Assembly (NCBI GenBank): GCA_036172245.1
Contig: JAYWIR010000088.1
Span: forward strand, 186,001-250,000
Origin: Raillietiella orientalis
Lineage: Eukaryota
Direction: 5' to 3'
DNA: 64,000 bases
Shown here: positions 10,751-54,971 of the stretch, one piece after another
Layout of the letters: the number at the start of each line of letters is the position of its first letter
How positions within the stretch are numbered: position 1 is the stretch's first letter
Program-made: the position numbers and the translations under genes
Notes under the pieces: generated by a model
What the model was told of the DNA's origin: nothing
The model's database searches: none
What the model saw: the letters and a program-made list of their open reading frames with translations, nothing else

Positions 10751-12615
10751 CTGCAGCGATCTTGTTTTCCTTTTTAAAGGCGAAAAGTCGAGCACCTGAC
10801 GTGAATGAGCTTAAAATCCCACTTGGTCCTGGAGCAGCAGTAGCAGCATATCGCTCGGAGGAACGTTCGGTGAGTGTCGGAAGGAGATTTGTTCGAACCA
10901 GGATCCGGGTGTGGGTTGACTCGACTCGTATTGCTACTTGCAGCGGGGAAGGAGATGCGCTGCAGGCGGTCCGAAAGGCGCGCTTTGCTTTCTTGCAAGA
11001 TTCGCGCTCTGGCGCCTCGAAGGCGCTGGATCCGTGATCGGAGCCAAAAGAGTTCTGTGGCGTGCCAGAACGCCAACAAGGGGAATCTCGGAAGGAGAGA
11101 GGCTATAGGATGAGCGAAAGGGTTTCTGCGATGATGTCGCTATCCAGAAGTGTGAGTTTCTGTGATCCCATGACTTCAAGGCGACTTCTGGAAGCAGGAT
11201 GGCTAACACACCGTGCGCAAGACGGGAAGTTCCTCATGAGAGCTCACGGCTTTTCTACTCGATCGATTGGTGATTCTTGGCGCTGCTTGCTTGTGACACT
11301 TCAAGATGTTTTCCCGAAACATCTCCTTGCACTTTGCATCAGACTGAATGCACCCATTTTTTCCGTTTCGTACCAGGATGAACTCCGCCGTACACCAGAT
11401 AAGCAGCAAGCTGTGCCACCACCACCTGCAAGGAATGGAGTTGCCGATGGGGTGTTTCTGGGCCATTGCATTTTACGTTTATTGCCTGAATCTTTCCTGG
11501 ACCGTAGGACAGGGCCAATCCAGGTGAGCTGTCGAGTGGTCCTCTGTGCTTCAACCTTTTTTTCTTCCTACCCTGGAGAGGCTCTTTGTTGATTCTCTTC
11601 CTTCCCAATTGCAGCGAGGTTTCCCTTCAACGCGCTCTAAGTCCTCGAGCGGCTCTGAGGTGGTGCTGAGTGCGGGAATACAAGGAAAACCAAGATTCGG
11701 GTCAGGGGATGCGAGTGAACCTCGGCCGTCGTTCCAGAGTCTGCTCTGGGATTCTCGTAGAGCATCGTGGCGTGCGTGCCCGTAGAGTCCATAGCCGTAG
11801 GCGAACGCTCACGATGTCCTTAAATCCTCTGTGATCCCGATCCGTGCAGGACGGTGCGCTAGTCGGTGCGTCTTGGCGGCCTCGGCTACCCACTCGACTC
11901 CGAACCCTCATCGGTACGTGTCTCTCGTTCCCCGTGCGAGCCACGTAGGAGTGACTCCCCAGCCACGGACACGCTGCCCTGGCTTCATTGCTTCTGCGCT
12001 CCTGCTCCTCCATTCGTCCTTCATCCCTTTCGAATCCAGCTCCACCTGTGCATCCAGGAAGAGCTCCGGGAGAGGAACGGGTCCATTCCTCTCGCGCCTT
12101 GGAGAGATCCCGGAAAGGAACCTTTCCTTCATTCTCTCCGGGGGGACCTTCAAAGGGGATGCTTTACCAATTCTTCTCCGAAGGGAACTCGGAAGGGATC
12201 CACTCCTGAAATTTCTTTCCCGGAAGGAACCCACCCGCAAGGGAACAACTCCCTCTTCCTCCACCTCTGAAGAGACGCTCCCCGAACGGGAAAGCGCGCT
12301 TCTTCGCACTATGCAACCAGTTCCTTGGTTCCCGATGGAGAACCTTTCCCGCCCGAGGTGTGGATAGGCATCCGTTCTTTGATTCCTGGGAGACTCCGGA
12401 GGGTCAACTCCCAAGTTCCGGCCACTCCACGGAGGCATCCGAGGGTTTCCAGCTCCCACCAGTGCCGCGCCCGAATAGGTCAACCAGAGCCATCCTGCGG
12501 AAACCTGAGAGGGCTGGAAACCTCCAGGGAGCACCCTTTCTCGGGGTTCGACCATTTCCCGTGTAGGATTGGAACCCGCGACGCTTGACACCACCACAAG
12601 ACGGCCTCCGGTTCT

Positions 12616-24200: not shown

Positions 24201-27066
24201 CGTCCAGCGGAGCACCCAGAAAACTCGGGCAGGCAAAGGTCTGTGGACGCGGCCACTGGCCAGTTCCACTCTGCACGGGTGTGAAAGTGCATCTTCATGA
24301 CTCCTGGGCACCGAAACCCTGCGCGGGTGGAAAATTCCGGAGCCTCCCGCGCGGGGCTTCGGATGCTGCTGCCTAGGAAACCGCTCGATTCGCCACCCCT
24401 TTAGATGCAGCCTCTCAGCAGTGCCCGAGGGAAGCGCGGGAAGCCGGAGCTTTCCGAGGTCGTCGGCCTCTTGAGTGCACAGTGAGTCTGTGGAAACAGA
24501 AAAGTGCGTGTGCAAGCTCTCTGCATCCGACCAGTCCGGGAGAAGAACAATATGGTAAGTCTGATTTTGTATGTTTGATAGAAAATGGTCAAATCTGGAA
24601 AGTACTAGTGGACTTTCATTACAGAAATACTTAATGCAAATATGTTGAAAGACGGTAGTGAATAAATGCTTCTCTTATAAATATTTCTAATCATAGTCAT
24701 GTAGCTCATGTCATGTTGTCTAGCAGTAGCGCAAAGTTGTTAAAAATGCCAAGCTGCTTATGTGTAGATTTTGTTATTAAAATTATTTCCATACTACGCT
24801 TATCATACTTGGTGAACTACGTTTCTTATGGTCTTCAGAAATCTAACTGTAAAGATTGCTTCAACTGGTAGAATATGAGATAGTGCTTTTATCCTTGAAT
24901 TATAAACTACAGCTTTCCAAGAATCTCCCCAAGATGCTCACATGGTAATTCAGTTGTAGCTCATATCGCAGATCCTATAGCTGACAATGTTGCGATGTGT
25001 TCCTTTTGATTTCAAAGCAGTTTCATTGTACTCCAAAACTTTTTTTACGTACAACTTTTGAAATACCCATTTCTGTAGAAATCAATGTACTTTGAAATGA
25101 AGTCATGATTAAGAATTGTACACTGTTTCTAAGAGCAGTGCTTCGGTGTTTCACTTTGGAGCCATATTTTAATTTGTGTGTTTATTAGTTTGTATGTTTA
25201 TGAGTTCATGGATCGTTAAAGTATCAGGTAATTGAGTTTGTCTGCAACTGCTGTACCTTGAAACTCAATAACCTGCTCAAGTACTACTGTACTTTTATGA
25301 AGTTTTATAATAAAGGCCTCAGGTGTGTGTAGCTAAAGGCTTTATCCTAGTTTATATTTATCATCATTTGTAGGAGTAGTAATTGTGAATCAATGTCCTC
25401 TATATAGTTTATGATGCTTGAAATTATCATCATATTTGGATACTGATTTTGTGAAGCTTCAGTTAAAATTGCAAACCTATAATTGTTTTTGTTGTTAATG
25501 CAAGAATAACATGAATGCAAATCAGTGCACAACTCAATATAGTGAATGGTAATGGGTGCTGACAACTTTTATTTTTTAAAACATGTGGCATATGGTGGAA
25601 ATTCCATCAAGCCCTGCTGCTACCACTCACTGGTCCATTGAGGCTACTTTGATTGCCGCAAGTAGTAATGGCACATTCTGTGTGGGGCCATTGTTTGTGC
25701 AGTTTCTTGTCAGTATGCTGCAAGTTTTCTAGATTGTGTCAAACAGATTCAGTCATGAGCTGTGTTTTATAGCATGAATCATTTACCAATATGAAGTAGC
25801 AATCTGCATTAGTTCATTTAATACCATTACTTATGTCTCCAACAGACTTCTACCAAATGCGTCACAAGAAATGCGAGTATGGCTTCTGTTTATCCAATTT
25901 GGTTTTTCAGTGTCCTGCTTTCGCCTCTTTCTCAGGGTTCGCACGAGTGGTATTAATTTGTATGTCTCCTAAGACTGATATTGCTCTTTTCTTCCAGTTT
26001 TGTGTAGCTGTTTGGCAGCCTTGCCTCAGTTCATTCCAGCATTGGTTTTAGGAAGCTAGTATCTGGTGTGTCATTGTCCAACAGAAGTAGCCAGTTTAAC
26101 ATATCTCCCTTACATGTTCAAAAGTTAATGCAGCCTCCCCAGATGTTGGAACTCTTTGTATATGAAATGGAATTGTGCACCCATATTGATCCACAAATGT
26201 GTGCTTGCTAGGGTTACTTGATTATTCGAGTGTTATCCTCAAGCAAATACTCATACATGCATTTGTGCACTCTTGCACTCCCATCTATGTGATGCTCTTG
26301 TATGTTGCCAAGATATGCCACACAGCCCCAGAAATGGCATTGAAGTTACTGCCAAAGATGTGCATGGTTGGGAGACCATCCCTGGCTTGTTCCTGTCTAC
26401 TCACAGTGTCAGACTATTCCATGGTCTGTGAGGTCCTCTGTACAGCCTGCAGTATTGTATTTTTGTAGTCACTTCCTTGGTAGTTCTCTACAACTTGGTC
26501 AAGAATTTGCTGACTGTGCACTCACTTTTAGATCCATACTTGATAGTGGGAATCGAATATACCTTCAGAAAATGTGCATCTTTGATGTTGGTTGTCATTT
26601 TTCTTGATTGTTCTCTCCTGGAGATAACATGGCATGATGGCAGTCGTTTCCAAAGCGTTCCAGGCTTTTGTCATACAGAATTCCTTGCTAGTATACTATA
26701 AGAGACACTATATTAAAATCTTGTGTACCACACTCCAGAAAAGCCCACCACACTCTGATGGTTTGTTTTTCACCAAACACTCTTCAATGATTCAGTGCAT
26801 TCCTCCGTGCCTGCGCAAACTGCATCGAGCAAAGTACCTGATTTTCTTTCGGCGTATATCCGGAGAACATTTCAGCTAGAGATGATCGCAAATAACTTGC
26901 AATGTTTGCCTCCGTCATGTGAGCGGATCGAGGTGTAGATTCCTATTTTATTTGCATATTATACACGTTAGAAAACAGTTACTATGGTTCCAGACTACAA
27001 GGCGGAAAATTTGACCTCATTCTTCTTTTCCGTATCATCTGCTTTTTATGTCCACTGCTGCTGTAC

Positions 27067-27985
27067 CTAGAATCGCGAGCTCCTGTAAGTGGAGTAGGGT
27101 CGCAGAGACTGTTGGAGTGGATGTCCAGGTCGATGGTTGTCCATCTGTTTCTGGAAGTCTGGCTCCCAGATGGCGAGAACTATGACATGTGGAGTGTCAT
27201 AGTACTTAATGGAGTCCTGATATTTTGGATCAAATATTATGCCATTTTTTAAGGATTCAATGTATCCGTATTGGGCGAGTTCCTTTGCATCTCTTGTAAG
27301 TGCAGCTGTGTATGTAAATTGCTTTTCTTGGTAGGAAAAGGAATTTTGCGAATGTGGTTTTTCCGTCGTTTCCTTTGGAGTCTTTAACCCAGTAGGTGTT
27401 TCCTGGATGTGGAGGCTTTCTGAGGATGCCAATGATGTCCATCTGCCATTGGTGTAGACGAAGTGATGCCATTGAGTTCGGTGCTGAGTCATTGCGGTAC
27501 ACAGGAAGCACAAGTTAATGTTTTTTCAATAAAACTTGGTGTAACCACACCAAGTTTGATGATGTATTTCTCAGTGTGCCCAGACCGAATAAGTTGGAGT
27601 ATCTAGAGGAAATGAAGTTTGAATGGTGTGGAGGTGTGTACCTTCTTTTCGTAGTTTTCTTCATTTGGGTTGTTATTGAGTGCTCCGAAGGCCCATGGAT
27701 GTTTGTCTTGCTTGGAACAGTAGAGCACGTTTGAGGAAGCGCATCTTTTTGCGTGTTCCAGGTGGCATGTTGTGAGTGGCGGACGTCGTTGTTGGATGAG
27801 AGTCCTACCTCTTTTTCTAGCTGTTACCTTCAGTATCTGAGTGAGAATTTCAGTTAGCAGCCACTCAGCGGTGTGGTATTCCTTGTCAGACTTACTTTGA
27901 CGATGATCGAAAACGCAAAGTTGATTATGTTTCAAGATTATTTTTCCTCTGACAATGGAACACCATGGTTTTCATTCTGCAGTGA
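27067..27985 (-). pseudogene. rep: Endogenous CRESS-DNA virus Rep remnant 1 (HUH endonuclease + SF3 helicase)
   Basis: Frameshifted motifs in order: PWCSI (motif I-like), QGIPHR* (motif II-like), CHLEHAK..NVLYCSKQDKHPWAFG (motif III), YWVKDSKGNDGKTTFAKFL (Walker A), YGYIESLKNGIIFDPKY, TPHVIVLAIWEPDF. Confidence 0.88.
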
Positions 27986-28936
27986 TCTGGCATCTGATCA
28001 CATGCAAGACTGAGCTCCAAACATTGTGATGCTAGGCAGTCAAGTGTAGAGTTTGGTTTGCTGTTTTCCAATGACCACTTAGAGCTTGTCTGGCGAATTA
28101 CCTTCCCAGTACATCAAGTTTTTAAAGCACTGGACAATTTCATGCTTTAAGATTCTAAGGTAATGCGCTCTAGGGCAGATTTGTATAGGATCTTGTATAG
28201 GGCGAACTACGTGATCTGAGCATTCTTCTTTGTCCTTGTCATCTCAAAGTTTTACTAGTTTTACTGTTTATGCCATCCTGAAGATATTCTGGGAACTAGA
28301 TCCACTGATTTATATGATCCTGAGATGCTGGTCTTATGGTCGACGACCGCAACATACTTGTGCTTCGAAATTTTTTGTCTTGCCAGGTACTCTTTGGTAT
28401 AGTTATTGCCTGTGGTGCTACCCTTTGCTGGTCTTGAAGTCATTGTAATCATTTGGATAACACGCTTGCTTACAAGGAAGGACTCTGTTTCTGGGTCTAG
28501 TCAATGCCGAGTGCTCATTTGAGATGGTCAGCTTGCAGGCGCAAGCCAACTTTGCGGGAATCATGTTGAGATTTCTCATGCTTACGTTTGGTTATGTAGT
28601 TGAGTATCAAAATTGTACTTCGGGTAGTGGGAACCCTAGATGGTTACCCCGCTAAATAGTCATGTGTCAGTTAGGGTGGTGTTTCTAAAACGTGGAGTTC
28701 ATCTGCTTGTTTTCATATTGTGCAGAGCATTGAATTTAGGGTTTTGGGTAGTTGGCTAATGTGTAACGACATAGTTGCAAATTCGGTTATTGAGTGGTTC
28801 TTGGAAAAAACGCTGTGCTGCTATGTAATGCATCTTTTATGCATTCTCTTTGTACGTTGCCCTCTGTTGTTATTCCTTGTCTATCGAGGGCTCTGAATGG
28901 CAATCGTCTGTGATAGAACGTTAATCAGTTAGTATT

Positions 28937-29530
28937 TCATCGATGTTCACACTGTATGAGTGGACGTTGTGGTAGACATGCTAGGATGATGAGTTGTGTT
29001 CCACCTGATGTGCTTGCGTTCATCGCAGAAGCATTGTTTGGGCTTTGTGAACACCGTACTGAATGGCCTTGCGTTCCACACTTGTTGCATTTTCCCGGAA
29101 GACACGCCGCCATTCTGTATAATGTACCTGCAGCGCCCGTAGAAGTCGGGAAATTTTTTTTTTTTACTCTGACGCGTTGCAATTGGCGTCTGATTTACCT
29201 GCCAATGTGCTCAGGTACAAAATCGCCTACTTTGTACTGGGGTGCGGGTTTGTGCCCATTTATGACGTTGGTCCGTAACTCCAGTGAGTGGCACCGCTCC
29301 TAATGCTGTCATCACGGTAACGAAGTCGCCGAAACTTTTCGCTGGTCGCGGGAATTGGAAGTGGAGGCAGTCTTGATTTCTGCCACAGAAATGGCGGGCA
29401 CGATGTCTTCAATAACCTCCATGTCAATTGGGGCGTTGCCGTTAAATAAACACGTACAGCACCCACAAGAATCACAACCTTTAAGCGGGGACGGTGAGCG
29501 TAGGAGAAACATGTCCCTCCGTTGAAGTTT
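28937..29530 (-). mobile_element. Retrotransposon 5'UTR and decayed ORF1 remnant
   Basis: GGACATG 5' motif at 29510-29516, MEVIEDIVP start similar to other ORF1s, and a CNKCGTQGH zinc knuckle. Confidence 0.65.
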
Positions 29531-31372
29531 TTTCACCCGGTCACGCCGAGGCGTTTATTGTGTAAACCAGTTCGGAACGCAGTTCCCAACTGAATATAAA
29601 AGAAGTTGAAGGGGATACTCCACCGGCACGGAGGTCGGGACAACCAAAAGTACTGAACGGGGGAGGGCAACGGGCACAACAGAAAAATAAATATGGTGGT
29701 AGCAATCCTCGAGTCCGCTCCTTTTGCACCAGGATTAGCAAGAAAACACATCGGGAAACTTACAGAGTGAACGGGAATAGGGTATGAGAAAAACGAATAA
29801 AAGGAGATACGGGACAAGCGTCACGGTATACGATATTCCTATTTTCAATCCGGCATTAGATGCCGGTAATGTTCAGAACTTGTAAGAGCTGACGGTACCT
29901 TAGAGAATTAATAAAGGCGGCCTCTATCGAAATGACCTCATCGCTGGCTGATGGTGTTGAGCACTTCACAGGCCATACCAATGTCACGGCTGAAACCCAT
30001 GGTTGCGAGGATTGCGCTCATCGAGTCTCCTTCCGGCGCGATGACCAGCCGTGGCACCTCTCCTGCGGTGTCCAGGTGCAGGAGTGCTGCTGCCAGGCTC
30101 CGCCACAGTACCTCGAGGGCACCCCAGTACAAAAGCGGATGTGGGATCCAATCTTCGTTCCCCACCCGGCACAGTCCGAGGATGACATCCCTAAGATAAT
30201 GCCGTTTAGCTGCTCCTTGAGCTGCAATCTCCAGTGGAAGACACGTTGCACGTCTTCTGATGCGTGCAAGCACTGAAGTGTTCACTCCAAGAGGAGAAAC
30301 CACAAGGTCTGCAGGGGTAACACTCAATAGTTCGCTTAATCGAAGGGGTGCTGTAGCCACAGCATGCGGAGTGGCAACATCCACCATCTAGCACGTATTT
30401 CAATGCAAGATAGTTTTTGTTATTCCTGCAATGGTGCAGGAAAACTCACTTCTGCGTTGGGCTACTCTCGTCTTTCTCCCTGAGGCCACACCGCTGCGTG
30501 AAGGGATGTGGCGGCCACAGTGGACCACTTCGCCGTGTCTTGCATCTCCACTTTCTGTGGTCATTGCAGCAGACTCTGAAGGGAGTGACGATCTTCAGTG
30601 CTGATTCCTTAGAATGCAGCTCAAGACTTAGTAGTCTCTTGCCGCCAAGCTTTCAAGTTTATTGGTTTGCAGAAGATACTTAGTTGGCTTTCTACTAGGG
30701 AGGCGACTTGCCTCATGGTGAAGCCGAATCGCCGCATCCTGTTGTGAGTGTCCGGCACCAGCTAGAAGGGTCCTTCGCTCTCGGCGCATCTCCGCAAGAT
30801 GACACGTAGAGGCGCACACTTCGGGGAAGTCTACAGCTTGCCACAGAGTGCCATCACTCGGAACTGCACTTGCTACTCGATTCCGATCCAGCGTCTGGAT
30901 GCCTAAGGCGGCATCTGGTAGCGCTGTCTCCAATTCTTTGAGACATCCTGGACCTCACAGGTACATTTAGAGCGTTCCTCAACTGGCGTTGATCCTGGAG
31001 CTTTGCCTCTCAAGAGGGCAGGCGAATTAGAAACGGAGCGTAGGAGGGACGGAACGAAGGTGTTCCAAACTGCCTCTCGTTCCGGCAGGTTTAACTTGTC
31101 ATGGAAGAACGGACCGGCAGAGAAGTCACCCTTCTGCAGTCTTTGCCCCGCAAGTCGGCGAGTGCTCCCCTGAGGAACTTTCAGCTTTTTTTTTTTTGCC
31201 GGACAAGTAACCGAGTTGCGTTTTCGTGGGTTTTGTGAAAATAAATGCCTTGAGGTAATGCAGTGAATAGCCTCTTGAAGGCAGTCCTACCGGGCTTCGG
31301 CAATACGCAAGATGCACAAAGGAACGCCAAGATGGATGAAATACTTGTCTGTCGCTATTTCCTGGAGGGTGC
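29531..31372 (-). mobile_element. L1/Tx1-like 3' portion (post-RT region, zinc finger, 3'UTR, 3' terminus)
   Basis: FIHLGVPL near 31330; ORF 29938..30387 C-terminal block; AATAAA-hairpin end at 29531-29559. Confidence 0.8.
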
Positions 31373-31374
31373 AG

Positions 31375-32410
31375 TTTTTCACCCGGGTGAGCCGGGGCTT
31401 CTATCATTAAAATTTTTCACAATACAATAAATTTCATAATAAAGTCTTGAGTTTTTCGTTTTTCTGCTTGTTTTTCAGTCGGGACATATCGCCGACTGTC
31501 TTGAGGCACTTGTCCTTACCGACCCGAAGGCCTATAAGGTCGTCCACACTGGCGAAGGAGCGGGAAAAACAAAAATAAAACAAAAAAAAAGAAAACGCCT
31601 GGGGGTAATGTTCTTCGGGAGGGGGAGGAAGGGAAGGGATCACGGCATGCCGTGAGGAGGCCTCTGCATCCGGTCACGGATGCGGACGAGTGCCTGTAAA
31701 TGCTTTCGAAGTCGGCGCCAACGGCAGGCCTTCTCTAAGGAGATGGCTGCCCAGTGGATGGCATTCCGACTGGTATGTCCTCTCCTTGACGCGGTCCACT
31801 TGTCCAGTATTCCGCGTATGCAACAGAGCACTGCTAGACATCCAAAAGCTGGCAAGGCGTCCCGCATCAGGAGTCGAAAGATGTTTTTCGAGTCGCCCCG
31901 CGGAATGTTCAAGATCGACGAGAGTCGGTCCCACATATCACGAAGGGCAACGCACTCTAGGATCAAGTGAGGGAAGGTCTCTCTTTCCTCACAGTCTGTA
32001 CAATTAGCATCCACACTCCCCGATGTCCAGTGAGACAAGCGCGCTCTGCTTAAAAGTCCCCAATGGAGCAGAAGCAACGCCGTCTCCTGCCACTGCAGGG
32101 GAAGGGTGCCGTTGTCCCAAGACGCCGGGGGCCACTTCACCTCCTCCGGAGGTAGTTCGAGCAGCGCGCCCCAGCCTAAAAGTCCATTCGGCGGGACACT
32201 CGGGGTACTAGCGTCCGCTAGTTCCCTGGACGTCCACGCCTTGAATAATTTTTTCCTGCCTCCGATGAGGCAGGACACTTCCCACGATGCCTCCTGCTGG
32301 CTGTCCCGAACTTCCCTGAGGGAGGGCAGCACTGTGGCAAGGGGGGTGAAGGAGGCCCACAGAAGCTTCCGTGGGTTGCGGACGATCTCCTGCAGTGGCT
32401 GACCAGCGTG
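31375..32410 (-). mobile_element. 5'-truncated L1/Tx1-like copy (ORF2 C-terminus and 3' end)
   Basis: ORF 31640..32332 has GLLGWGALL..LLLLHWG..CTDCEERETFPHLILEC. Terminal hairpin CCCGGCTCACCCGGGTGAAAAA. Confidence 0.88.
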
Positions 32411-32806
32411 ACTGCCTCTACGGAGGCAGTTGTACCTCTTTTCGCAGGACTATCAAACTAATGTTTATCTCAAAGGGATGAAGAATAGCAGGGAAAGCGT
32501 CTTGCATAATCCCAGACGCTTCTCATGTTTGGATCTGTTCTCGTCTGAGTTCAACGACTCCATCCAAGCATATTCACCGTGTTTGCCTGGGGCACGTTGT
32601 TCAACTAAGTTGGGACGCAGCGCTTGTGGAAGATCCCAATCTGTTATGTTTGGGTCGTTCGATCTGATCTTCTATAGTGACTAAGAACCTTGAATGCAGC
32701 AAGATCCGGTGACGGGTACGATTCGTAGTGGACATGGTTCGGTGCCCCTTGCACTCCACCATGTGATGTCTCTTGGGGCATTACGGAGTGATTCCACTCA
32801 ACGAGT

Positions 32807-33505
32807 TTGCCACTCTGGTCAATCACATCTCCTAAACCTCATAGGATTGGTTCGTGGATGTTTGGTTATATTGAGGATTATGAATCTGTAAATGAATTGT
32901 TGAAGAGTTTGAATTTGGAACAATACGCGCGTTATTATCGTTACGTGAAGATAAAAGGATGTGCTACGAAGGTGGAGCCATTGTCTCTGGGTTTAACGAT
33001 AGGCAACATGGCGGAAGAGTTTGGAATGAAAGTGTCGTATAGGAATACGATTTTGTATCAGGGCATTGCGCATGGAGAGCATTTTGGAGGGATGGCAGGT
33101 CACCATTACAGTACAGTGGTGAATCGTATTAGTGCTCATGAGAAAACGTCTGGTTGTTTTGCGCGTTAATTTGTGGTGATGGGTGTGCGAGTTTACTCGG
33201 AGGCTTACTTGGTGAAGAAGGTGAATGTGGATGGCGTGGTGTTAGATAGATATTGGAAGTGCCCTTGGATTGATTGTGCACGAGGAAGTGGTTTGGATCC
33301 TGAAACGAATGCAAATGTTGGTTTTTCTTTTATGCATATAATGAAGCATATGTCTGGTGTGGAAATTCCAGATGGATTGGAAGTAGGATGCCAGGGTGGT
33401 GTTTGTCCTAAAAACGGTCAAATGCAGAAGGGTTATCAGATTTATAAAATAACGAGAAAGTATTATGTATTGTTCAAACATCTGAGAGATGTTGGGCTAT
33501 ACTGA
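32807..33505 (+). pseudogene. Endogenous CRESS-DNA virus capsid-like gene (one internal stop at 33167-33169)
   Basis: ORFs 32807..33169 and 33173..33505 are in the same frame. Capsid-like motifs QYARYYRYVKIKGCATKVEP, YWKCPWID and C-terminal YKITRKYYVLFKHLR. Convergent with the adjacent Rep. Confidence 0.7.
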
Positions 33506-34370
33506 ATGTACACATAAATAAAGAGTGAAAATGTTTAATTGGTCTACTTCGTCATATGATGTGGAGAGTGGTGATAAGGTGGAGATGGAGGAAGAAGCAG
33601 GCGAGTCAGGGGCTTCTTCTGGATTAGAACTTGAAGAAGAAGGCCATGGGAGAATGCATATTTCCTCGGAGATCTGCCAGGGAAGTTTTTGCTTTATGTG
33701 TTGAAAGCAATCTTGTGAACGATCCATAGATCAGTAGATAATTTTGCAAAGTCGGGTTGCCAGTCCGCAAAGACGATGATGTGGGGTGGCTGGAAATATT
33801 TTAGACTTCCTTGGTATTTGGAATAAAAAATGATTCCATTTTTTAAAGATTCCATGAAGCTGTATTGCATGTGCCCATGTTATCTTTGGTGAAGTCCACC
33901 ACAATGATGCGTTCTCCGTTGTACAGGTGGGCTGCATTAGCCTTTCTGCAGGAGTGCATGTATATGGCATCTTTTTTTTAAAATAAAAACTTGGCCATCG
34001 TGGTCTTTCCAGTGTTGCCACAGGTATCGTAATACCAGTGGATTTTTCGAGAGCTGGGTGTTCGTCGGATGATGTCCAAGATATCCATCTGCCATTGTTT
34101 TAGTTGAAGGTTTGTTATGGGGTTTGGATGTTGTCTGCTCCTGAAGAGTCGGAAGCATTCTTAAATGAAGTTTATATTTTTGGAGTAAAATTGTGTGTGG
34201 TTTTTCAGGATGTAAAGTTTGTCTGCTCCGTTTTCAATAAGTTCTAGTATCTGGAAGTAGGCGTCCACCGCATATGTAGCTTCCGCTGGTGGTCTTGTTG
34301 ATGCTGGTTGCCTAATGGCATTCTTGGCTGGGAACACCATTTCAAATTTGCTCGCCTGAGCTTCAACCAT
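33497..34370 (-). pseudogene. rep: Endogenous CRESS-DNA virus Rep remnant 2 (SF3 helicase half)
   Basis: RKIHWYYDTCGNTGKTTMAKFLF, IIVVDFTK (Walker B), YSFMESLKNGIIFYSKYQG, PPHIIVFADWQPDFAKLSTDLW; contains stops and frameshifts. Confidence 0.9.
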
Positions 34371-34459
34371 ATATGTTTAAACAAAGTTTAAAAATGGGAA
34401 TCAGCCACCTGTGCAAACAGTTTCTTGCTCCTATTCATGCTCACGCGAGCTCTCCGACA

Positions 34460-35650
34460 AATCAACTACAGGCTGGTCGCTGGGGTTGCGTTTGGTATAA
34501 GGAGTAGCTGGTCGTCCACATTGTCCTCCACGTTCGGTGTGGCTGCATAGGATCTTCGCAGGTAGTCCTGTGCGCTTTAAGTAGGAACTCGAAGAATATG
34601 CTGAAGAGCTGTGGACTTAATAGAACTGTCTGCCTGATAGCCATGAGTATGGGAATACAGTACACGTGGCAGCCGCTTAAAGTAATGCAGGCTAGTGCAT
34701 GGAGCCAGCAGGAGCGCAGGTGGAGTAAGAGTTCCGTTGGGTTACGAAGGCGTTCCAAGAACTCCAAAAGCAGCTGCTGATTGAGGTCGAACGCCTTATG
34801 TAGATCCTACACTTTGATACTACACTTGTGTAGATCGACCGCGACCTCCAAGGCACCCGGCACTCCCTCCTGCCGTCGGCACCTGTTCTTTCCTGCTGCT
34901 GCAACTTTTGCTGCTGCCCGGCTTTGCTGCTCTACGCGCTCCTGCAGCCGCATCCAGGTGTGTTCGAATGGAAAGTTCGCATGCACTGACCGCATGGGGA
35001 CATTGAAAGTCAGGTCAGGTCAAGTGATCTTTTCTAGCTGCACAGCCCATGGCTTGAGAACTTGACGTCCGGGTCCATGAGAGGGATCGGACACCAGTTG
35101 TTTATGTGGCGCAAATGCACCTTCGCTGGGTGGAAGAAGATCGTACTTTCTGCCGTCTGTGGGTTGGCTGTCGTCGTCAGGGTCGATTTTTAACCGGGAG
35201 CACTGGGACGTAGATTGAAATGAATGTAAATTGGAATTTGAAAAAGGTCTTCTCAACATGGTAGGCATGGTGTACCGGACCGCAGCCATTCCGCTGTGAA
35301 TGGACGGAAAATCCTTGAGGGTGCTCTGAAGCCTCCACAGCTCGTGGATCGTGGCAAATTTAGCCTGCTCGTTCCTTATGTCGTAGTCGGAGATTTCCGA
35401 CTTCATGTCGAAAGTCTCCATCACGAAGGAGTCGTACATGGCTGCAGGTAACCTTGCCTCGGATAGACAGTGGGCTGCGCAGCAAGTGGTGCAGAAGATC
35501 CGCGTCCTAGCAGCGCACCTTGAAATAGACCTTGTTCTTAACTGGCATGATGACGAGTTCTTCGTTCCGAATGCCTATGCGGTTTAGTAGATCACTGAAC
35601 TGATCCCGGTCGCTACCGGAAAGAAACTCACCTGGTAACCGAGTGCGCGC
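34460..35650 (-). mobile_element. Decayed RT (34460-34960) and ORF1 (35250-35650) fragments
   Basis: AIRQTVLLSPQLFSIFFE and DLHKAFD (RT). SEISDYDIRNEQAKFATIHELWR..KDFPSIHSG matches ORF1 at 62111. Confidence 0.75.
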
Positions 35651-35727
35651 TTGTAGTCATGGGCTACGTTCTCCCGAAACCCAGCTTTGTCGGGGGGTTC
35701 CCCACTATTAGCTGCTGCTGTGGAAAC

Positions 35728-35855
35728 GTTGCAAAAATTTCGGAGAAATGTTTGCAAAATTTTGCAACATACAAAAGTGAGTGAGTGTAAGTTGCAAAAA
35801 ATTTTTGCAACTTACACTTCCGTCTTCCTCGCCGACGGCGAGGAAGACGGAAGTG
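35728..35855. repeat. Cluster of perfect palindromes
   Basis: TTGCAAAATTTTGCAA (35752-35767); 17-bp arms 35784-35800/35802-35818; 20-bp arms 35815-35834/35836-35855. Confidence 0.95.
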
Positions 35856-35859
35856 AAGG

Positions 35860-37115
35860 TTTTGACTCTGTAACGCCGGGACGTTTATTTCGAGAAACAA
35901 ACTACAAACTTGAAGGGACATGCATCCCTTTGAGACAGAAGAAACTTCTATACAAAAAGTGAAACCGGGAAAACCACCGGCACTCAGGCCGGCTTCAAAA
36001 AAGAATAGAACGGAGGGAAGGGACACGCTAAACAAAAAAAGAAGGGAGGGTGGACACAGGGATCTTTGGTAATGAGCGTTCCTCTTCTACAACTGCCGCT
36101 TGAGGATGGCGATTTTTCTTGGCAGATGAGGCCACCTTGCAGCCCGCCAACCCTCTTAGGTTCTCAAGCTGGCCTTGGGCTATGAAAGCCCGCATTTCTG
36201 TATCCCATATGGTCTTTCGCTGGCCACCACTCCTCAACTGTGAAGTGGGAATGGAGCCTTCCTGTCGCCAGGGACTCTTATTTTGTAAACGCTGACATGT
36301 CTACTTCTCTTCCTCATCGTTGCTTCCATCCTCCCCCGCCAGCGCCTCTTGGTCTCCCGTGGCTGCTTTCTTGCTTCCTTGTCATGCTCGTCGCTTTGCG
36401 AACGGTTCATCTTCCTTGTATGGTGTCTTTTGAAGCAAGCTTTATTGGACAAGTATCGCAGTATTTACTCGTTTGGCATCCCTCATACCTCTACTCTCTT
36501 TTCGAATGGAGATTGATGAATAGTGATGGGGATGGCGAAAAGAAAAGAAAAATACATAATAACATATAGCTTCATAGGATTTGGTTGACATGGAAAGGGA
36601 TGAATGTCTGCTCGAGGTAGTCCTCTGCATCCTTTGCAATTTGCTAGCAAATTCGTCTCTTGTTCTACTATCCAGTTGGAGCCATCTGTTTGTCCTACAT
36701 AAAGACGTGGTGTCTCGGTGAAAAGGAGCGAAGGGAAGGATTTCACTGCTGAAACCGTGGTCAACTTGGCAGTCAGCGGACGCTCCGACCCGAATGTTCC
36801 GCCTAAAGGACTTGTGCGCTGCGGCGAGCTTCTCGGAATCTCTCCAGAGGAGATGAAGTGGCTCCCGGCTTTTTGGGACAGTGGCACCCTCTCGATAAAG
36901 TAGCAAATGTTCTTGGATTGAGTTCTTGATTCTTGGGCTTCCGTCCCGTCTTCTTTGGAGGAGCCTCCGCGGAGGACTCACTTCCGGCATCCGGATCAGG
37001 ATCACCTGCTTCAGGTGCCTAGGCCGCGGCCGGTCTTCTCAAGGCTTTTTGCGCCGGTTTCTCACGGCCGACGAGTTCGGCCGCGAGCTCTTCCGCCGCC
37101 TGTTCGAAGGCAGAA
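35860..37115 (-). mobile_element. Retroelement 3' end (35860-36240) plus rearranged fragments (inverted ORF2 piece 36700-36910; ORF1 C-terminus 36915-37115)
   Basis: AATAAACGTCCCGGCG end at 35860-35889; + strand VPPKGLVRCGELLGISPEEMKW; - strand EELAAELVGREKPAQKALRRP. Confidence 0.8.
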
Positions 37116-37151
37116 GAGTGTACAGTTTAAAGGAACAAGAAATGTGTATTA

Positions 37152-37710
37152 TTAAATATATTCTTTTATTTCATCATTTTGTGCGATAGTAAATTCTGTT
37201 TCCTTTTTAGCGTTGTCATGTATGAAATGTACGATCCATCTGTCACTGCTCGTCTTTTGGTAATTAGGATCCATGTTGGCCATGATGATCATGTGTGGTG
37301 GCTTGAAAAACTTGATGTAGCCTTGGTACTTTGTACAGCATACTATGCCGTTCTTCAATGATTCTATGAGGCTGTAATTGATGTGCTCCTGCACATTTTT
37401 TGTTAGGTCCATTATAATAATTTTTTGCTCATCTAGATGTATGCAGCGTCTGACTTTTTGCAATTTGTCAAGTACATGGCATCATATTCCATAAATATGT
37501 TTTGCCATTGTTGTTTTTCCTGAGTTTCCCTGGTAGTCGTACCAGTGAATGTCTCGTTCGTTGGCTTCGTCCTGAATTATTATGGGTAGTTGCCAATCTT
37601 TCCTTGGATTGGATCAATGTTTTGTGTGGTCAGGCAAATGGAGTCTTGTATAAATTGTTTGTTCTTCGCGTGTATTTCAGGACGATGTTTCGAAATCCAT
37701 TTTTCTTATT
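37152..37710 (-). pseudogene. rep: Endogenous CRESS-DNA virus Rep remnant 3 (SF3 helicase half)
   Basis: RDIHWYDYQGNSGKTTMAK, IIIMDLTK, NYSLIESLKNGIVCCTKYQG, PPHMIIMANMDPNYQKTSSDRW. Confidence 0.9.
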
Positions 37711-38427: not shown

Positions 38428-39230
38428 GTTTGAACCCAGTTGAACCGGGACGTTTATTCGTGAAAACAAACCACAATATTGAAGGGAAATTCATCCCCTC
38501 AAGACACAAGAAACGCCCATGCAAAAAGTTCAGCCTGGAAGGACCACCGGCTCGCAGGCCGGCTTCCAAAAGAAGGGAACGTAGGGAGAGGGGTACAAAA
38601 TAAAACGAAACAGAAAAAAAAAACGGGAGGGTGGGGTCAGGGATCTTTGGCATTAAACGTTCCTCATCTTCGTAGAAGTGCTGTCTGACGTTGGCGACTT
38701 ACCTGGAGACCTTTCTGGGCAGATGAGGCCACCTGACGGCTGCCTTCATAAGGTTCGCGGCTATCCTGGCGGCGTCCATTCGCTGCGAGCTTCCTTGTAG
38801 CTTACGGCGGGCCGTTACTATGGCGCGGATGCAGCAGATTGTTGCGATCACAGCGCCCTTTTCCAGTCCGTCTTCGCTGAAGAAGCGTCGCAGCAGGCCG
38901 ATGGCAGTGTCCTGGGGACGACAAAGTGCCAAAGCAAGTCTTTACAATTCGGCTGTTTTGGGGAACGCCGCTGTTCCCTTCAAACATCCGTACCACGATT
39001 TTTTTTCTTCTTCGTCCGCATACTATCGCAGGTAAGTACGTGCAGTGCGGTTTCCATGAAACCACCGGTCTTGCACATCTCGTCCTGAACGTTGCCTGAC
39101 CAGCGCTTTGATCTCGTGCCGCTCGGCAGTTCCGTGATAAAGCATGAGCAAGTCAATCAGTGTCGGCTGCCAAGTCTCGTCCAGACCGTGGTTCCAACCT
39201 CCATCGGGTTCACCTGGAGACATCCGCAAC
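38428..39230 (-). mobile_element. 5'-truncated L1/Tx1-like copy
   Basis: Terminus AATAAACGTCCCGGTTCAACTGGGTTCAAA; C-terminal LLRRFFSED..ATICCIRAIV; 3'UTR similar to 35860-36070. Confidence 0.85.
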
Positions 39231-43950: not shown

Positions 43951-45830
43951 CCAGCAGCCATACGGTGCTCCGATTTGCGTTTCACCGGCGAGCGAACGGT
44001 AAGCAGCACTGCTGGCTGGAGATCACGGTCGCCACCGTCCTCCCTGGTGCTGCACGAATTCGAGTGCTCGTCTCCGGCTAGCGTCGTTGGACGGTCGGCG
44101 GTGAGCTTTCGGTCCTTCGCGGCGTGCGCTGCGCGCCTCAGGGCCTTAGCCCGGCGCGCTACGGCTTCCGCGCGGGTGATGCGACGTGCGGCATTGATAT
44201 CAGACTCCGTTTCTGAGTCCGATTGAAGCGCCGGCGCTTCGCGACTCTCCTGCCGTGTCGATTCGGAAGTACTCACGGATGGTACCGCGGACACTTCCTT
44301 CTTCGCGGTCAACGGGGCATCGCTCCCGGTGATCGCAAGTTTCTCGCTATGAGCGGTCGCGGCGGTATCTTTTGCAGTAACAGAGGGAACCTTCGCGCGA
44401 GTTTTCTTCAACGCGCTGCTGTTCCGTGCCTTGCAATCGCTCTTGGATGGAGGTAGCGGAGAATTTTTGGGAGACTTTACGTTCCTCCCTTTTTCCAAAA
44501 CCGTCCACACTCCGCCCGTTACCTCGGTGCGTTCGGAGATCTTTGTCAGGAACGCCTCCGGGCTTTCCTCCCCAACCGCCTGGGGCGCCGCTTTCGCTGC
44601 AACCTTAAAAGGCGGCAAAGGCGCAGCCTTTGCGGCAGTGGGGAGATCGCTCCGCGTCTGCCTCGCTGGGGAGGATGCAGCTGGTTGCGGCGTGCTTTCA
44701 AGCAACGCACCGCTGCTTTCGCCGGCTTTTTTCGCCGGACCTCCAGTCGCCTTCGTGAGGTTTCCTACTGAAGCCTCCGAAATGGACAGAGGTTTCAAGG
44801 AGACGGTTACCACGCAATTTCCATTCGCGTGTCCTCCTTTCGCGCTGTCGCACGGTGCGACTGGTTTCACTGACCCCAGTCCGCGAGTAGTATTTCCGCG
44901 CTCAGCTACGGGGTCAGTGACGGTACGCGCGGAGTCCTCTAGTCCTCTTTTAATAGGCTTTCCTGCCGCGCGATTGCCCTTATTTCGTGCCCGGACTCCT
45001 TACAATAGCGGCACTTCCGAAAAGGGCATCCTTTACCCCGATGCCCTTCTTTGCCGCATTGCTGGCACGCTCGAGTTTTGCCAACGAACCACAGATGAAC
45101 GACCGTGCCGTTGACCTGTAGCGTGGCAGGCAGCGTGCGGCGGTTAGGAACGGTAACTCTAACCGCAGGAAATCCTGTGTGGACAGAGGGGAATTTTTTG
45201 TATACACTCCCCTTCCTCCACACCGCATGAACGCTGGCGAAATTCGCCAACGCGTCCAACGACTGTTTGTTGTTGATCTCCGGCTCGACGTCAGAAAGAA
45301 CAACCACAAAAGACTCGTCCATCGCGGAAGGAAAAACTTTTTCCCCGCAAATGGACAAAGGAGTGCGGAGGAGCCGCTGCAAAAGCTCAGCCTGCTTCCA
45401 TCGGAACTTTACATAGCCCAATGCTGGAACAGGCATGAGTGCTATGAGGTCCTCCTCCTGCACTCCCACACGGAAAAGTTCGTCCGCGAACTCTTCTCCA
45501 GCCTTGTCTACCCCACTTACATTGTAGCGAAGAGCAGGTTTGTAGCCCTGGGCTACATATGCCTGCATCTCCGCTTGGTCGGGGAGGCATCCTTGCACGG
45601 TCGCAGATGCAGCCACGTCCGCGAAGCTCCTGACCGGTGTCGCGGGGCTCGCACCGGCTGTCGTCATCGTTGCATCTGGGAGAAGTTCCTGAACCATTGG
45701 TTGTACGACTTCCAGGTTGTCTTGTACACTGCTCATCCTTAGGAGTGTGCAGCGGGACACACAAGCACAACCAAACAGCAGAGCAACGGAGAGACACGAA
45801 TTCACGTCCTACTTGCATGAAGGCGAATGT
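43947..45830 (-). mobile_element. Retrotransposon 5'UTR and ORF1 (RRM-like region, two CCHC-type knuckles, low-complexity tail; ATG ~45736; frameshift near 44950-45000)
   Basis: ORF 44939..45805 RSFADV..GYKPALRY..CQQCGKEGHRGKGCPFRKCRYCKESGH; A/K/P/S-rich ORF 43947..44870; GGACGTG at 45803-45809. Confidence 0.9.
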
Positions 45831-45845
45831 TGAAATTTTTTGAAA

Positions 45846-47490
45846 TTTTTTACCCGGTCACGGCGGGACGTTTATTGATGTAAACGAGCTAGAAACAGTT
45901 GTTTCGAGCCCTCCAGTATGAAGACATGCAGCGGAGATTCACCACTGGCACGCAGGCCGCGAAAACGGAAGAACACGGACGACTGACGGGAGTCCAAAAA
46001 CAATAACAAAACAAAACAAAGAAAAAAATAAAAAAAAAATAAAAAAAAAATTTAAACTGGAGGAGTGGGCCAAGGAACTTTGGGAAACTCAAAGGTTTCA
46101 GTACCAAAACCACTGCGGAGCATAGAGGGAAAAGGATGCGAGAACAAAAAAAATCAATTAAAAATAAAATGAGGGCGGATCACCGGGTTCGTCGTTCTAA
46201 GCCGTTTCTCATCCGGCGATGGATACCGGTTAGCTGCTCCGTTGTGTCTTCCCATAAATGTCGCCACCCAGCTGCCGACCTGATGAAATCTGCTGCCTTC
46301 CTGGTGACACAACATTGCTGTCCAGTGCTCTCCAGCACGTCTCGGACCGTGACGATGGCGCGGATGCAACCAACAGTGGAAATCGTCGCAGCCATCGAAA
46401 GTCGTTGTGGCTGGAAGAACCGTCGCAGCACTTCTCGAGCGGTGTCCCCCGGAAGCGGGAGAGCTGCTGCTAGCCTCCGCCAGAGTTCCTGGAGGGTACC
46501 GCAGTCCATAATAAGGTGCGGGAACGACTCCGTCGCCCTGCACCGGGCATAGTAGGGAGAAGCCACCCCACCGGAAGCTCGGTGGCGCCGCTCGTTGTAG
46601 CGCAAGCCCCAGTGCAAGAAGAGCAAGACGTCTTGCTTCCATGCAAGGGGAAACACCGAACCGTCCAAACACCAAGGAGGGATTGTAAGTTCCTCGGGGG
46701 CAACACCTAGTGCTTCTCCCCACCGAAGTAATCCCTTTAATGTTGCACGCGCACACAGGGGGGAAATCCATTGCTCAGCACACAGTGCGAGCATCCGGAA
46801 CTGCACTTGCGGTCCCATTCTCTCCATCGTAAGGATGCCAAGACCAGCATCCCGACGTGGAGCCGCGAGGTCTTTCAGGCGGATCCTGGATCGCGCCGCA
46901 TCCCTGAGTGCGATCCTTAGCTATCGATTTGACCACTCTCTGGCCGCATAGGGGCTGTCGAAGACAAAAAACAGGGGTCGGAGGAGGGGTGCCACGAAGC
47001 TGTTCTAAATAACCGCCCGTTCCGGCAAGGTAAACTTGCCGTTAATGAACGGGCTGGCGGCCAACTTTGCCCTATGATGGGAGTCCTTCCACGCCTTGGC
47101 CGCGCCGAGATCTACCAGCGGAACTCCAAGGTCCTTGAAATACCCTTCTGTTGGGATCCCCAGGCCGATCCACTCGGACTGCCCCACCCACGACGCGCCC
47201 ACAGGAACGACCACGCTCTTCTTTTTCACGCTCACATGTCCGAGCGTGGGAGTCTCTCGGGCGAGAAGTTCCGCGATTCTCCCGCGCTCATTGCACCCTC
47301 GCTTCCGGAAGCCATCTCCACCCATTCGCCGAGGGGAAGGATGTTCCTTGGCTTTGGGGACTTTCGTCCAGCCTTCTTGCTGGGTGCCGTGGAGATGGAG
47401 GCTGAGCTTCCGGCCTCTACCTCGGGGTGGGAAGTGGCTGACTTCTGAGGGGAAGCCGGACGCCTTACGGCCTTCTTGCCAGCCTTGAAA
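45846..47490 (-). mobile_element. 3' part of an internally deleted copy (ORF1 tail joined to post-RT region, zinc finger, 3' end)
   Basis: KKAVRRPASP (ORF1), then YFKDLGVPL, GLLRWGEAL..ESFPHLIMDC; terminus at 45846-45876. Confidence 0.85.
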
Positions 47491-47493
47491 GTT

Positions 47494-48110
47494 ATCACCC
47501 GGGTACGCCCGGAGCGTTTATTCAAAAACTCTACAAGAAAACGTGGTTTAAGACCCTACTAACGGCCACACAACATTGTACCTGCCGGGACGCCGGGACG
47601 CAGCCTGGCGGGACGATCCGCGGTAGTGGAGAAGGATGGGGAACAAAACAAAAAGAAAAATAAAAGAAATAAAGAAAAACAAAAAGTTTGGAGGGAAGGG
47701 AAGGGATTACGGTCCACTGGGAGGAGGTCCCATCCTTAGCAGGATGCCATCGAGGTCCATCCGGATTTCAACCAGCTGGGGCCATCCTGCAGCTCTTCTC
47801 AAGGAACGAGAAGCATACGGGATGACGTCCCTCTCGTAATGGCCATCTTTTTCGTCACGCATTTCGCTCCAAGCCGCCACGATTCCTCGGATGCAGCATA
47901 GGGCTGCGAGGGTAGCGGCAGGCTCCAGGGCGTCTTGCACGAAGAGTAGCCGAAGAACGTCTCTGGGGTTGCTGCCCACTGAGAGCCCGAGAGTCATCCC
48001 GAACCGTTCCCATAGGGGTTGGAGGGCAGGTGTGAGAAGCCATTCCCGCTCCCCACACCTGGCACACTCAGTCCTCACACTCCCCCGCACCAGGGGAGTG
48101 TAAGGCCTGA
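47494..48110 (-). mobile_element. 3' fragment of an L1/Tx1-like copy
   Basis: CARCGERE..ALCCIRGIV; terminus AATAAACGCTCCGGGCGTACCCGGGTG at 47496-47522. Confidence 0.88.
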
Positions 48111-54965: not shown

Positions 54966-54971
54966 GTTCCA

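Follow-up and report, generated by a model that had tools for sequence, protein, structure and literature searches.

Three divergent Rep pseudogenes of CRESS-DNA virus origin within 11 kb of retroelement-rich Raillietiella orientalis DNA

Three Rep relics among retroelement fragments

The window analysed here is a stretch of 64,000 nucleotides of DNA from Raillietiella orientalis. On its minus strand, in a part that is filled with retrotransposons, lie three relics of Rep genes, at approximately 27130-27971 (copy 1), 33694-34379 (copy 2) and 37152-37658 (copy 3), arranged head-to-tail in 11 kb. An earlier reading of this DNA, made from the sequence alone, had proposed three Rep relics in one orientation with differing Walker A motifs and a further motif in common. 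Six-frame translation finds them inside the interval it had named: copy 1 carries KGNDGKTTFAKF and ESLKNGIIFDPKYQDSIKYYDTPHVIV, copy 2 carries CGNTGKTTMAKF and ESLKNGIIFYSKYQGSLKYFQPPHIIV, and copy 3 carries QGNSGKTTMAKH and ESLKNGIVCCTKYQGYIKFFKPPHMII. Walker A is present in all three (GNDGKTT in copy 1, GNTGKTT in copy 2 and GNSGKTT in copy 3), as is the motif ESLKNG..KYQ..PH.I. A Walker B-like motif remains in copy 2 (IIVVDF) and copy 3 (IIIMDL), and is deleted from copy 1.

A profile built from 88 database Reps, none of them from the window, matches pieces of all three copies (E 1e-32 to 7e-5) and nothing beyond them in the 64 kb, where the next best match has an E-value of 0.52. In copy 1, the remnant of the N-terminal HUH endonuclease lies at 27645-27971 (profile positions 104-150, E 6.8e-5). 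This is the only relic with HUH motif III (YCSK); the region that hosts it (..CHLEHAKR..YCSKQDK.., approximately 27645-27776) is unmatched in copies 2 and 3, where the endonuclease part is absent by both tblastn in the window and the database-Rep profile. Upstream of motif III, a similarity to motifs I and II is visible by eye only, and the profile is silent there. The first half of the copy 1 helicase, with its Walker A motif, is found in a different frame at 27260-27514 (positions 194-255, E 2.5e-17), and the second half (ESLKNG..KYQ..PHVIV) in a third frame at 27130-27321 (positions 274-324, E 9e-18). The coordinates of the two halves overlap because approximately 14-20 codons, including Walker B, have been deleted. 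One extra frame change can be seen by eye near 27150 (..SRNRWTTIDL).

The first half of the copy 2 helicase, including Walker A, lies at 33981-34160 (positions 193-243, E 1.5e-20) and its frame may, by eye, run on as the Rep linker to approximately 34379, with in-frame stops. The Walker B region (..ERIIVVDFTKD.., 33846-33977; positions 246-283, E 2.7e-7) shares this frame, with an in-frame stop between the two. Beyond a frameshift, the C-terminal piece (33694-33879; positions 280-336, E 6e-25) terminates in a stop codon at the same point as related Reps do. Copy 3 consists of the helicase domain only, with profile matches at 37485-37613 (E 9e-11) and 37155-37481 (E 1.3e-32). It is in a single frame with two in-frame TGA stops, reads IIIMDLTK at its Walker B-like motif, ends in TAA TAA, and forms an AT-rich island of approximately 600 nt (37% GC) with GC-rich flanks on either side. 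The stops, frameshifts, single deletion and truncation points differ among the three relics, which have no lesion in common. All three are pseudogenes, non-functional as proteins.

Retrotransposon pieces had also been described as interleaved with the relics, and these are indeed found between them. A minus-strand fragment at 31643-32449, between copies 1 and 2, is identified by tblastn to other elements of the window as the C-terminal portion of an ORF for reverse transcriptase, and has a weak Pfam zf-RVT match (E 1.2e-4) that falls under the curated cut-off. Another minus-strand fragment, at 34561-35751, contains ORF1 and part of the reverse transcriptase (tblastn E 1e-23 and 4e-14, respectively) and adjoins copy 2 on its upstream side, where the 5′ part of Rep is missing. 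A plus-strand fragment at 36736-36906 is located between copies 2 and 3. Finally, a minus-strand terminal segment at 36929-37111 sits approximately 40 nt past the stop of copy 3; blastn matches it to 59910-60095, 52161-52343 and 58004-58188, and these three other copies end at the equivalent base.

The neighbours that can be recognised encode an RVT_1 reverse transcriptase as well as a zinc-knuckle ORF1 and have the appearance of non-LTR (LINE-like) elements. A word-index protein search with one retroelement ORF had no match. Pfam recognised retroelement domains only, both among the 126 ORFs of at least 70 aa at 22-42 kb and among 70 of the 151 ORFs of at least 105 aa elsewhere. Of the 15 retroelement blocks at 9.8-61.3 kb, 13 have the minus orientation (15,498 versus 216 bases), like all three relics. 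This count was made with 14 ORFs of the window itself as queries, 12 of them minus, so some families may be missed. No Rfam family reaches its gathering score in the window. The sole tandem repeat is a 38-nt array of period 16 at 25169-25206, which is irrelevant to the relics. The observed/expected CpG ratio of the window is 0.88, which argues against a vertebrate host.

Viral origin and nearest relatives

The three stretches are relics of the Rep (HUH endonuclease and SF3 helicase) of CRESS-DNA viruses. When relic pieces are compared with the window by tblastn, the C-terminal piece of copy 2 finds copy 3 (E 6e-20) and the C-terminal piece of copy 1 (E 3e-16), and the N-terminal helicase pieces of copies 2 and 1 find each other (E 2e-19); outside the three relics the best match in the whole window has an E-value of 0.5. 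A profile of the relics retrieves 7613 proteins at E<=1e-3, 4475 of them at E<=1e-10, with the best single-domain matches at approximately 1e-33. Among the best 20 of the 7613, 16 carry Viral_Rep (PF02407), 10 carry RNA_helicase (PF00910) and 18 carry one or both. The best relatives are Rep proteins, and not the non-viral proteins that the sequence-only reading had allowed for as an adverse outcome. The top ESM Atlas clusters are Cressdnaviricota (0.95). Of at least 120 relatives listed for the metagenomic Rep P0104, two bear names, and one of these is 'MAG: replication associated protein [Cressdnaviricota sp.]'.

Structural comparisons point the same way. A profile made from relatives of the relics finds endonuclease domains of solved Reps (6h8o and 2hwt, E 1e-17; 7lar, E 8e-16), and the AlphaFold model of copy 3 (pLDDT 76.7) has SF3/AAA+ proteins as its best folds, among them papillomavirus E1, AAV Rep40, SV40 LTag and RuvB (E 4e-4 to 3e-3, TMq 0.37-0.50). 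Pfam recognised no viral family in the relic fragments, neither copy 3 nor the relic profile found a Rep among solved structures by sequence, the matches being at chance level only, and a word-index protein search with copy 3 had no match.

The nearest viral contigs are 84 IMG/VR loci of 2.0-2.6 kb (median 2179 nt). Rep is accompanied by a second ORF of at least 150 aa in 79 of the 84, 73 of which are ambisense, and a nonanucleotide stem-loop is present in 74, with TAGTATTAC in 62 of those. In the tree, these approximately 2.2-kb viruses, together with the metagenomic Reps P0092, P0104, P0121, P0148 and P0058, form the sister group of the relics. Their helicases are laid out in the same way (WQ.., GNxGK[ST], ..IE.[LI]KNG..S.KY..PH[VI]I.FAN..PD..LS.DRW), yet their identity to the relics is just 38-43%, and no database protein exceeds 43%. 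The relics appear to come from one unclassified CRESS lineage.

A likeness to nanovirus, alphasatellite or smacovirus Reps had been suggested from the motifs. Nanovirus and alphasatellite components are circles of approximately 1 kb with one gene each; the nearest contigs are mostly ambisense Rep and Cap genomes of twice that length with a TAGTATTAC origin. As it stood, this family guess is unsupported. Among solved Reps, 7lar, 5xor and 2hw0 are from Circoviridae, and 6h8o and 2hwt from Nanoviridae. The endonuclease of the relics' relatives matches both families (E 1e-15 to 1e-17). The helicase half finds no sequence match in the circovirus Rep, 7lar aligning only at profile positions 10-138, and the relic profile retrieves no solved Rep.

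The IMG/VR relatives are complete circular genomes with a Cap and a TAGTATTAC stem-loop, neither of which survives in the window. No NANT[AG]TTAC with a stem of at least 4 bp occurs at 24-41 kb, and no capsid family is recognised by Pfam among the 126 ORFs at 22-42 kb. A comparison of 329 window pieces with 101 non-Rep ORFs of the relatives gave no match, and the best match of the window to five Cap-cluster profiles has an E-value of 0.27. Nor was a target-site duplication found at the relics, and because capsid, origin stem-loop and target-site duplication were not found, no junction can be fixed with single-base precision. We set aside a plus-strand frame at 32792-33505 as an unsupported, though still conceivable, Cap candidate. 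It looks capsid-like by eye and abuts the 3′ end of copy 2, the arrangement expected of a Cap in an ambisense genome. However, its Pfam match to Circo_capsid (E 0.15) comes alongside one to SAM_2 (E 0.14), the ESM Atlas returns SAM-domain clusters at a chance-level 0.81, AlphaFold gives no usable model (pLDDT 31) and neither the Cap ORFs of the relatives nor the Cap profiles match. The idea of a LINE-mediated retrocopy of Rep mRNA, raised because copies 2 and 3 are truncated at the 5′ end with intact 3′ ends, was likewise discarded, there being no poly(A) tract after the stop codon of either.

The missing capsid and origin, and the silence of Pfam on the fragments, are what one would expect if the relics were pieces of a host transposon or plasmid-like Rep element, or an artefact of assembly or contamination. 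Independent read support is also minimal: one DNA sequencing run, possibly from the source sample itself, has 6% of the sampled words, and its 151-nt contigs match scattered parts of the window identically (e.g. 27096-27246 and 27948-28098), with none bridging a defined junction. That said, we consider a non-viral source very improbable. The best relatives are Reps on approximately 2-kb Rep and Cap contigs with canonical origins, and the helicase is SF3-type by fold and homologous to viral Rep helicases. The Rep of Helitrons is joined to an SF1 helicase and that of Replitrons comes with no helicase; the relics, whose helicase is SF3/AAA+-like by fold, differ from both. The relics are moreover riddled with stops and lie between host retroelements on one contig, as a contaminating virus would not.

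Divergence among the copies and the number of captures

The three copies are 39-54% identical to one another in amino acids and 50-64% in nucleotides. For example, the first half of the copy 1 helicase shows 49% identity with copy 2 over 67 aa, and for the C-terminal piece of copy 2 the identity is 64% with copy 1 and 53% with copy 3. The sole DNA-level match that blastn finds among them is a 56-nt stretch inside the gene (79% identity, copies 1 and 2), and no flanks can be aligned between relics. Near-identity of the copies, which would have pointed to duplication after integration, was therefore not what we found, and the description of the relics as related yet distinct holds.

In a FastTree analysis of 154 sequences, the relics form their own clade, with an SH-like support of 0.965 and recovery in 60 of 92 bootstrap replicates (65%). 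Within the clade, copies 2 and 3 pair in 41 of the 92 replicates, copies 1 and 2 in 44 and copies 1 and 3 in 6.

Proximity, a common orientation and the 56-nt stretch joining copies 1 and 2 could be taken as signs that a single relic was duplicated locally and then decayed neutrally. However, the differences gather at third codon positions (0.51-0.64, versus 0.14-0.39 at second positions), in alignments that were picked by protein similarity and thus bias the test somewhat toward this result. Furthermore, protein identity of 40-64% at 50-64% nucleotide identity lies above all 2000 neutral simulations in five of six comparisons; copy 3 against the N-terminal piece of copy 1 is the one that does not exceed them. 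The third-position excess, together with the lack of common flanks, leads us to reject neutral decay of a local duplicate, and the separate lesions leave it with hardly any probability.

The codon-position pattern requires selection and is silent on where that selection acted. An old integration could have become a host gene, been duplicated in tandem, stayed under long purifying selection and then lost all of its paralogues; near-adjacent paralogues on one strand typify tandem gene families, and such a history would also produce a single clade. We regard this as unlikely. All three copies are dead, two are without an endonuclease domain and their 5′ ends differ. They lie in a gene-poor field of retroelements with no recognisable host gene among the Pfam-screened ORFs, and there is no trace of introns or of common regulatory flanks.

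Is it possible that one event involved several molecules? A mixed concatemer of related, co-replicating CRESS genomes, or of several Rep-encoding components from a single infection, may have integrated once, in one orientation, with retroelements later spreading the pieces. The closeness and common orientation of the relics, and their single clade, would fit this, as would the 2.8 kb between copies 2 and 3, which are mostly recognisable retroelement sequence. Tandem Rep relics also exist elsewhere, as the database protein P0008 has two tandem Rep helicase domains. But most of the 5.7 kb that separate copies 1 and 2 is without assignment, capsid or intergenic viral sequence was not found between the copies, the relics differ in extent and truncation point, and recombination between co-infecting viruses that are 39-54% identical is an added assumption. 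A single mixed integration is therefore an improbable account too.

The explanation we favour, with a probability of roughly 60%, is that these are three dead EVEs from one CRESS lineage, with two or three related viral genomes captured separately and then trimmed. Each relic derives from the Rep gene of a virus whose nearest sampled kin are the approximately 2.2-kb, mostly ambisense Rep and Cap viruses with a TAGTATTAC origin. The divergence arose for the most part in working protein-coding genes, before or outside decay at the locus. Related but different viral genomes would then have been captured, on two or three occasions, in a gene-poor and retroelement-rich stretch, each relic being inactivated independently, and later retroelement insertions and deletions probably trimmed the relics and pushed them apart. 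We infer both the number of captures, for which separate events are likeliest, and any role of the locus as a preferred sink. The sequence-only reading had spoken of distinct viruses integrating repeatedly. Distinctness stands; the count of three events is less certain, as a single clade also fits two other histories, and since the relics are monophyletic one founder fits as well as three related viruses.

Most CRESS-DNA lineages are known from metagenomes only and have no host. These Rep fossils tie one such lineage to the source organism or its ancestors, and the presence of three divergent members of a clade in one place suggests prolonged or recurrent contact over a single accident.

Comparison with known systems

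The strand common to relics and retroelements raises the idea of a trap locus like those of mosquitoes. In bioRxiv 10.1101/127498, the piRNA clusters of Aedes aegypti are described as EVE-rich, retrotransposon-dense, unidirectional loci. The window resembles these in its mixture of viral and retroelement fragments, which share one orientation across tens of kb, and in having several different viral captures at a locus. It differs in that the Aedes EVEs described there are from RNA viruses and tied to LTR elements, whereas here the virus is an ssDNA virus and the neighbours are LINE-like. By this analogy, the region at 9.8-61 kb might be a one-strand small-RNA (piRNA-cluster-like) trap that repeatedly captured one CRESS lineage, in retroelement orientation, in a non-vertebrate host; we hold this to be a speculative and rather unlikely reading. 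If it were true, the relics would be a heritable record of, and possibly an antisense small-RNA defence against, an ssDNA virus family, giving the lineage a host and showing for the first time a cluster-based memory of CRESS viruses. If the locus is a mere graveyard of repeats, the relics are one more ordinary entry among known viral fossils.

Another parallel is provided by the krikovirus-type EVEs of PMC10193959, a paper that, taken singly, makes Draupnirviridae and the genus Krikovirus a candidate placement for the relics. There, 17 of 36 krikovirus Cap EVEs are paired with a Rep, the copies from A. vulgare form their own clade, and unrelated flanks are taken to indicate separate endogenisations. 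The window relics likewise are Rep-derived fragments with stops and frameshifts and unrelated flanks, in a setting where Rep is commoner than Cap, and they cluster in their host's own clade as the A. vulgare copies do. Unlike the EVEs of that account, they are three divergent copies in 11 kb on one strand, with no Cap partner detected. These are viral fossils of an ordinary, already known kind, in an unusually tidy arrangement.

Rep relics and their lesions

Six-frame translation of the window displays three minus-strand stretches, at about 27130-27971 (copy 1), about 33694-34379 (copy 2) and 37152-37658 (copy 3). They carry the Walker A variants GNDGKTT, GNTGKTT and GNSGKTT, respectively, each followed by ESLKNG..KYQ..PH.I, as the sequence-only reading had described. 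Used as tblastn queries, the relic pieces matched these three places alone across all 64 kb, with mutual E-values of 6e-20 to 4e-8 for most pairs (weakest 0.004) and a best match elsewhere in the window of only E 0.5.

All three copies are pseudogenes, with different lesions in each. Copy 1 is near full length (~840 nt) and spread across at least three frames; Walker B and its neighbours are missing (roughly 14-20 codons), and a further frame change is seen by eye near the 3′ end. Copy 2 lacks the endonuclease domain and has in-frame stops and one frameshift, which precedes the last 61 codons. Copy 3 is a helicase alone, in one frame with two in-frame stops, and forms an AT-rich island of ~600 nt (37% GC) between GC-rich flanks. 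Both internal stops of the copy 3 frame are TGA, too few for any inference on a TGA-reading code in the source virus, and the frame terminates in TAA TAA. When the copies are aligned, no stop or frameshift is common to any two.

The relics are Rep fossils of CRESS-DNA viruses. Pfam did not recognise the relic fragments, and no solved structure was matched in sequence by copy 3 or by a relic profile, built from an alignment (A1) of five pieces. Of the 7613 proteins that this profile matched at E<=1e-3 in an exhaustive HMMER search, 4475 reach E<=1e-10 and 12 reach <=1e-30; most are 270-360 aa long and align over their C-terminal half. Among the 20 best of the 7613, Pfam Viral_Rep is listed in 16 (14 exceed Pfam's own cut-off) and RNA_helicase in 10 (8 exceed it); 18 have at least one of the two, the database proteins P0008 and P0009 having neither. 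A profile of 16 relatives matched the solved Rep endonuclease domains 6h8o and 2hwt (E about 1e-17) and 7lar, 5xor and 2hw0 (E about 1e-15 to 1e-16). The nearest ESM Atlas clusters to copy 3 are labelled Cressdnaviricota (score 0.95; 24 of 30 hits come from that set). An AlphaFold model of copy 3, supplied with 37 relatives, has pLDDT 76.7 and pTM 0.70. Its best folds include RuvB, papillomavirus E1, SaPI primase-helicase, AAV Rep40 and SV40 large T, at modest scores (E 4e-4 to 3e-3, TMq 0.37-0.50), and the predicted structure fits an SF3/AAA+ core.

An independent profile of 88 full-length database Reps, with the window sequence excluded, matched every copy. Copy 3 spans profile positions 205-349 (E 9e-11 and 1.3e-32), copy 2 spans 193-336 in three pieces (1.5e-20, 2.7e-7 and 6e-25) and copy 1 spans 194-255 and 274-324 (2.5e-17 and 9e-18). 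Copy 1 also matches at 104-150 in another frame (E 6.8e-5), where ..CHLEHAKR..YCSKQDK.. aligns with Rep motif III; its motifs I and II are a resemblance by eye alone. The proposal that these are distinct fossils of CRESS Rep genes stands, and a very small share of the probability goes to an artefact or a non-viral origin.

Divergence and the number of captures

The copies are distinct, as had been proposed, with helicase identities of 54% (copies 1-2), 46% (2-3) and 39% (1-3); no database protein exceeds 43% identity to any of them. At the DNA level they match over only 56 nt (79%) within the gene, and their flanks have nothing in common. With the copies aligned by codon, differences amount to 0.51-0.64 at the third position, 0.29-0.51 at the first and 0.14-0.39 at the second. 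When the observed number of nucleotide differences was scattered at random, the observed protein identity was attained in none of 2000 trials for five of six comparisons; it was unremarkable between copy 3 and the N-terminal piece of copy 1 (35 codons). The alignments behind both tests were picked by protein similarity, which biases them to some degree toward constraint. Taken together, the two results argue that most of the divergence arose under protein-level constraint, and against local duplication followed by neutral decay, which we reject but for a slight residue of probability. It is unlikely that a single old integration gave rise to duplicates which stayed under selection for a time before every copy was inactivated.

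A FastTree phylogeny (LG+gamma, 154 sequences, 161 columns) took each copy's frame pieces as aligned to the profile, every break being filled by gaps or X and no sequence being repaired. The copies form a single clade (SH-like support 0.965), which 60 of 92 bootstrap replicates recover; within it the order is split, with 2+3 in 41, 1+2 in 44 and 1+3 in 6.

We favour separate captures of related viruses, at rough odds of 0.6, because the copies are of unequal extent and are truncated at different points, no further viral sequence links them and their flanks are unrelated. The first two points also tell against a mixed concatemer integrated in one event, a history we consider improbable.

Viral relatives and a candidate capsid frame

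The sister group of the relics comprises the database proteins P0092, P0104, P0121, P0148 and P0058. Among the matches listed for P0104, PF02407 is present in 120 of 120, on contigs of about 0.9-3.4 kb, and one is named 'MAG: replication associated protein [Cressdnaviricota sp.]'. In a sample of 84 related IMG/VR contigs (median length 2179 nt), 79 have Rep plus a second ORF of at least 150 aa, 73 of these in ambisense arrangement, and 74 of the 84 have a nonanucleotide within a stem of at least 6 bp (TAGTATTAC in 62). Since most of these contigs combine Rep, a second ORF and a stem-loop in ~2.2 kb, the relics derive from a lineage of CRESS viruses of the ordinary small Rep+Cap type and not from ~1-kb alphasatellite-like molecules; the earlier likeness to an alphasatellite type is not supported.

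The best-scoring database protein, P0008 (354 aa, E 2.9e-60, two matched stretches), falls outside the relics' clade. It has two near-identical Rep helicase domains in tandem and no endonuclease domain, and looks like a gene call spanning tandem Rep relics of another genome.

Beside copy 2, a plus-strand frame of 238 codons with one stop (32792-33505) extends after a frame change to 33704, about 10 nt inside the Rep 3′ end, where a capsid gene is expected in an ambisense CRESS genome. For this frame Pfam gives Circo_capsid E 0.15 versus SAM_2 E 0.14, ESM Atlas a SAM-like score of 0.81 and the model a pLDDT of 31; no match was found among the relatives' Caps. As evidence for a capsid these results are equivocal at best.

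Genomic setting and known systems

The window looks eukaryotic and rich in repeats. Rfam found nothing in it, and a Pfam screen of 126 ORFs of at least 70 aa at 22-42 kb and 70 of the 151 of at least 105 aa elsewhere gave retroelement domains and no other family. Fourteen long retroelement ORFs from the window itself served as tblastn queries for a retroelement map, one with RVT_1 (E 3e-11) and another with a zinc knuckle (E 8e-4, slightly under the Pfam cut-off). Their matches collapse into 19 blocks. At 9.8-61.3 kb, limits set post hoc and with 12 of 14 queries from the minus strand, 13 of 15 blocks (15,498 versus 216 bases) share the minus strand with the relics; at the window ends the blocks are on the plus strand. 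Retroelement sequence starts about 180 nt upstream of copy 2, and a retroelement terminus lies ~40 nt past the copy 3 stop codon.

Four copies of a ~185-nt segment, in one orientation (36929-37111, 52161-52343, 58004-58188 and 59910-60095), all terminate at an equivalent base, the first adjoining Rep copy 3; the segment probably marks the 5′ end of a retroelement family. Copy 3 and neighbouring retroelement pieces are bracketed by a direct repeat of about 260-290 nt (35876-36137 and 38445-38734, 73% identity). Because it overlaps a reverse-transcriptase C-terminal match at 38657-38911, the repeat is probably a pair of retroelement 3′ ends and not LTRs. At 11900-15400 (61% GC), both strands carry long frames of up to 359 codons without a Pfam family; base composition, not the presence of genes, probably accounts for them.

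Across the whole window the CpG observed/expected ratio is 0.88; it is 0.95 in the retroelement-rich part (44000-62000) and about 0.6 both in the relics and in the AT-rich sequence at 22-29 kb. Vertebrate genomes are strongly depleted in CpG; such depletion is absent here, which points to a non-vertebrate host. One lead is that the relics may be EVEs of krikoviruses (Draupnirviridae), a type present in snakes, lizards and turtles and in certain insects (PMC10193959). The inferred host weakens this lead.

Our literature search found no paper with piRNA, endogenous and Cressdnaviricota all in the title or abstract, and for EVEs, piRNA clusters, same orientation and circovirus only mosquito RNA-virus work. 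Since invertebrates are already known to harbour multiple host-specific EVEs from CRESS Rep genes, the present relics belong to a known kind; their clustering on one strand is the sole feature that might lead further. The argument for separate endogenisation is one they share with isopod EVEs, for which the original study relied on it (PMC4231630).
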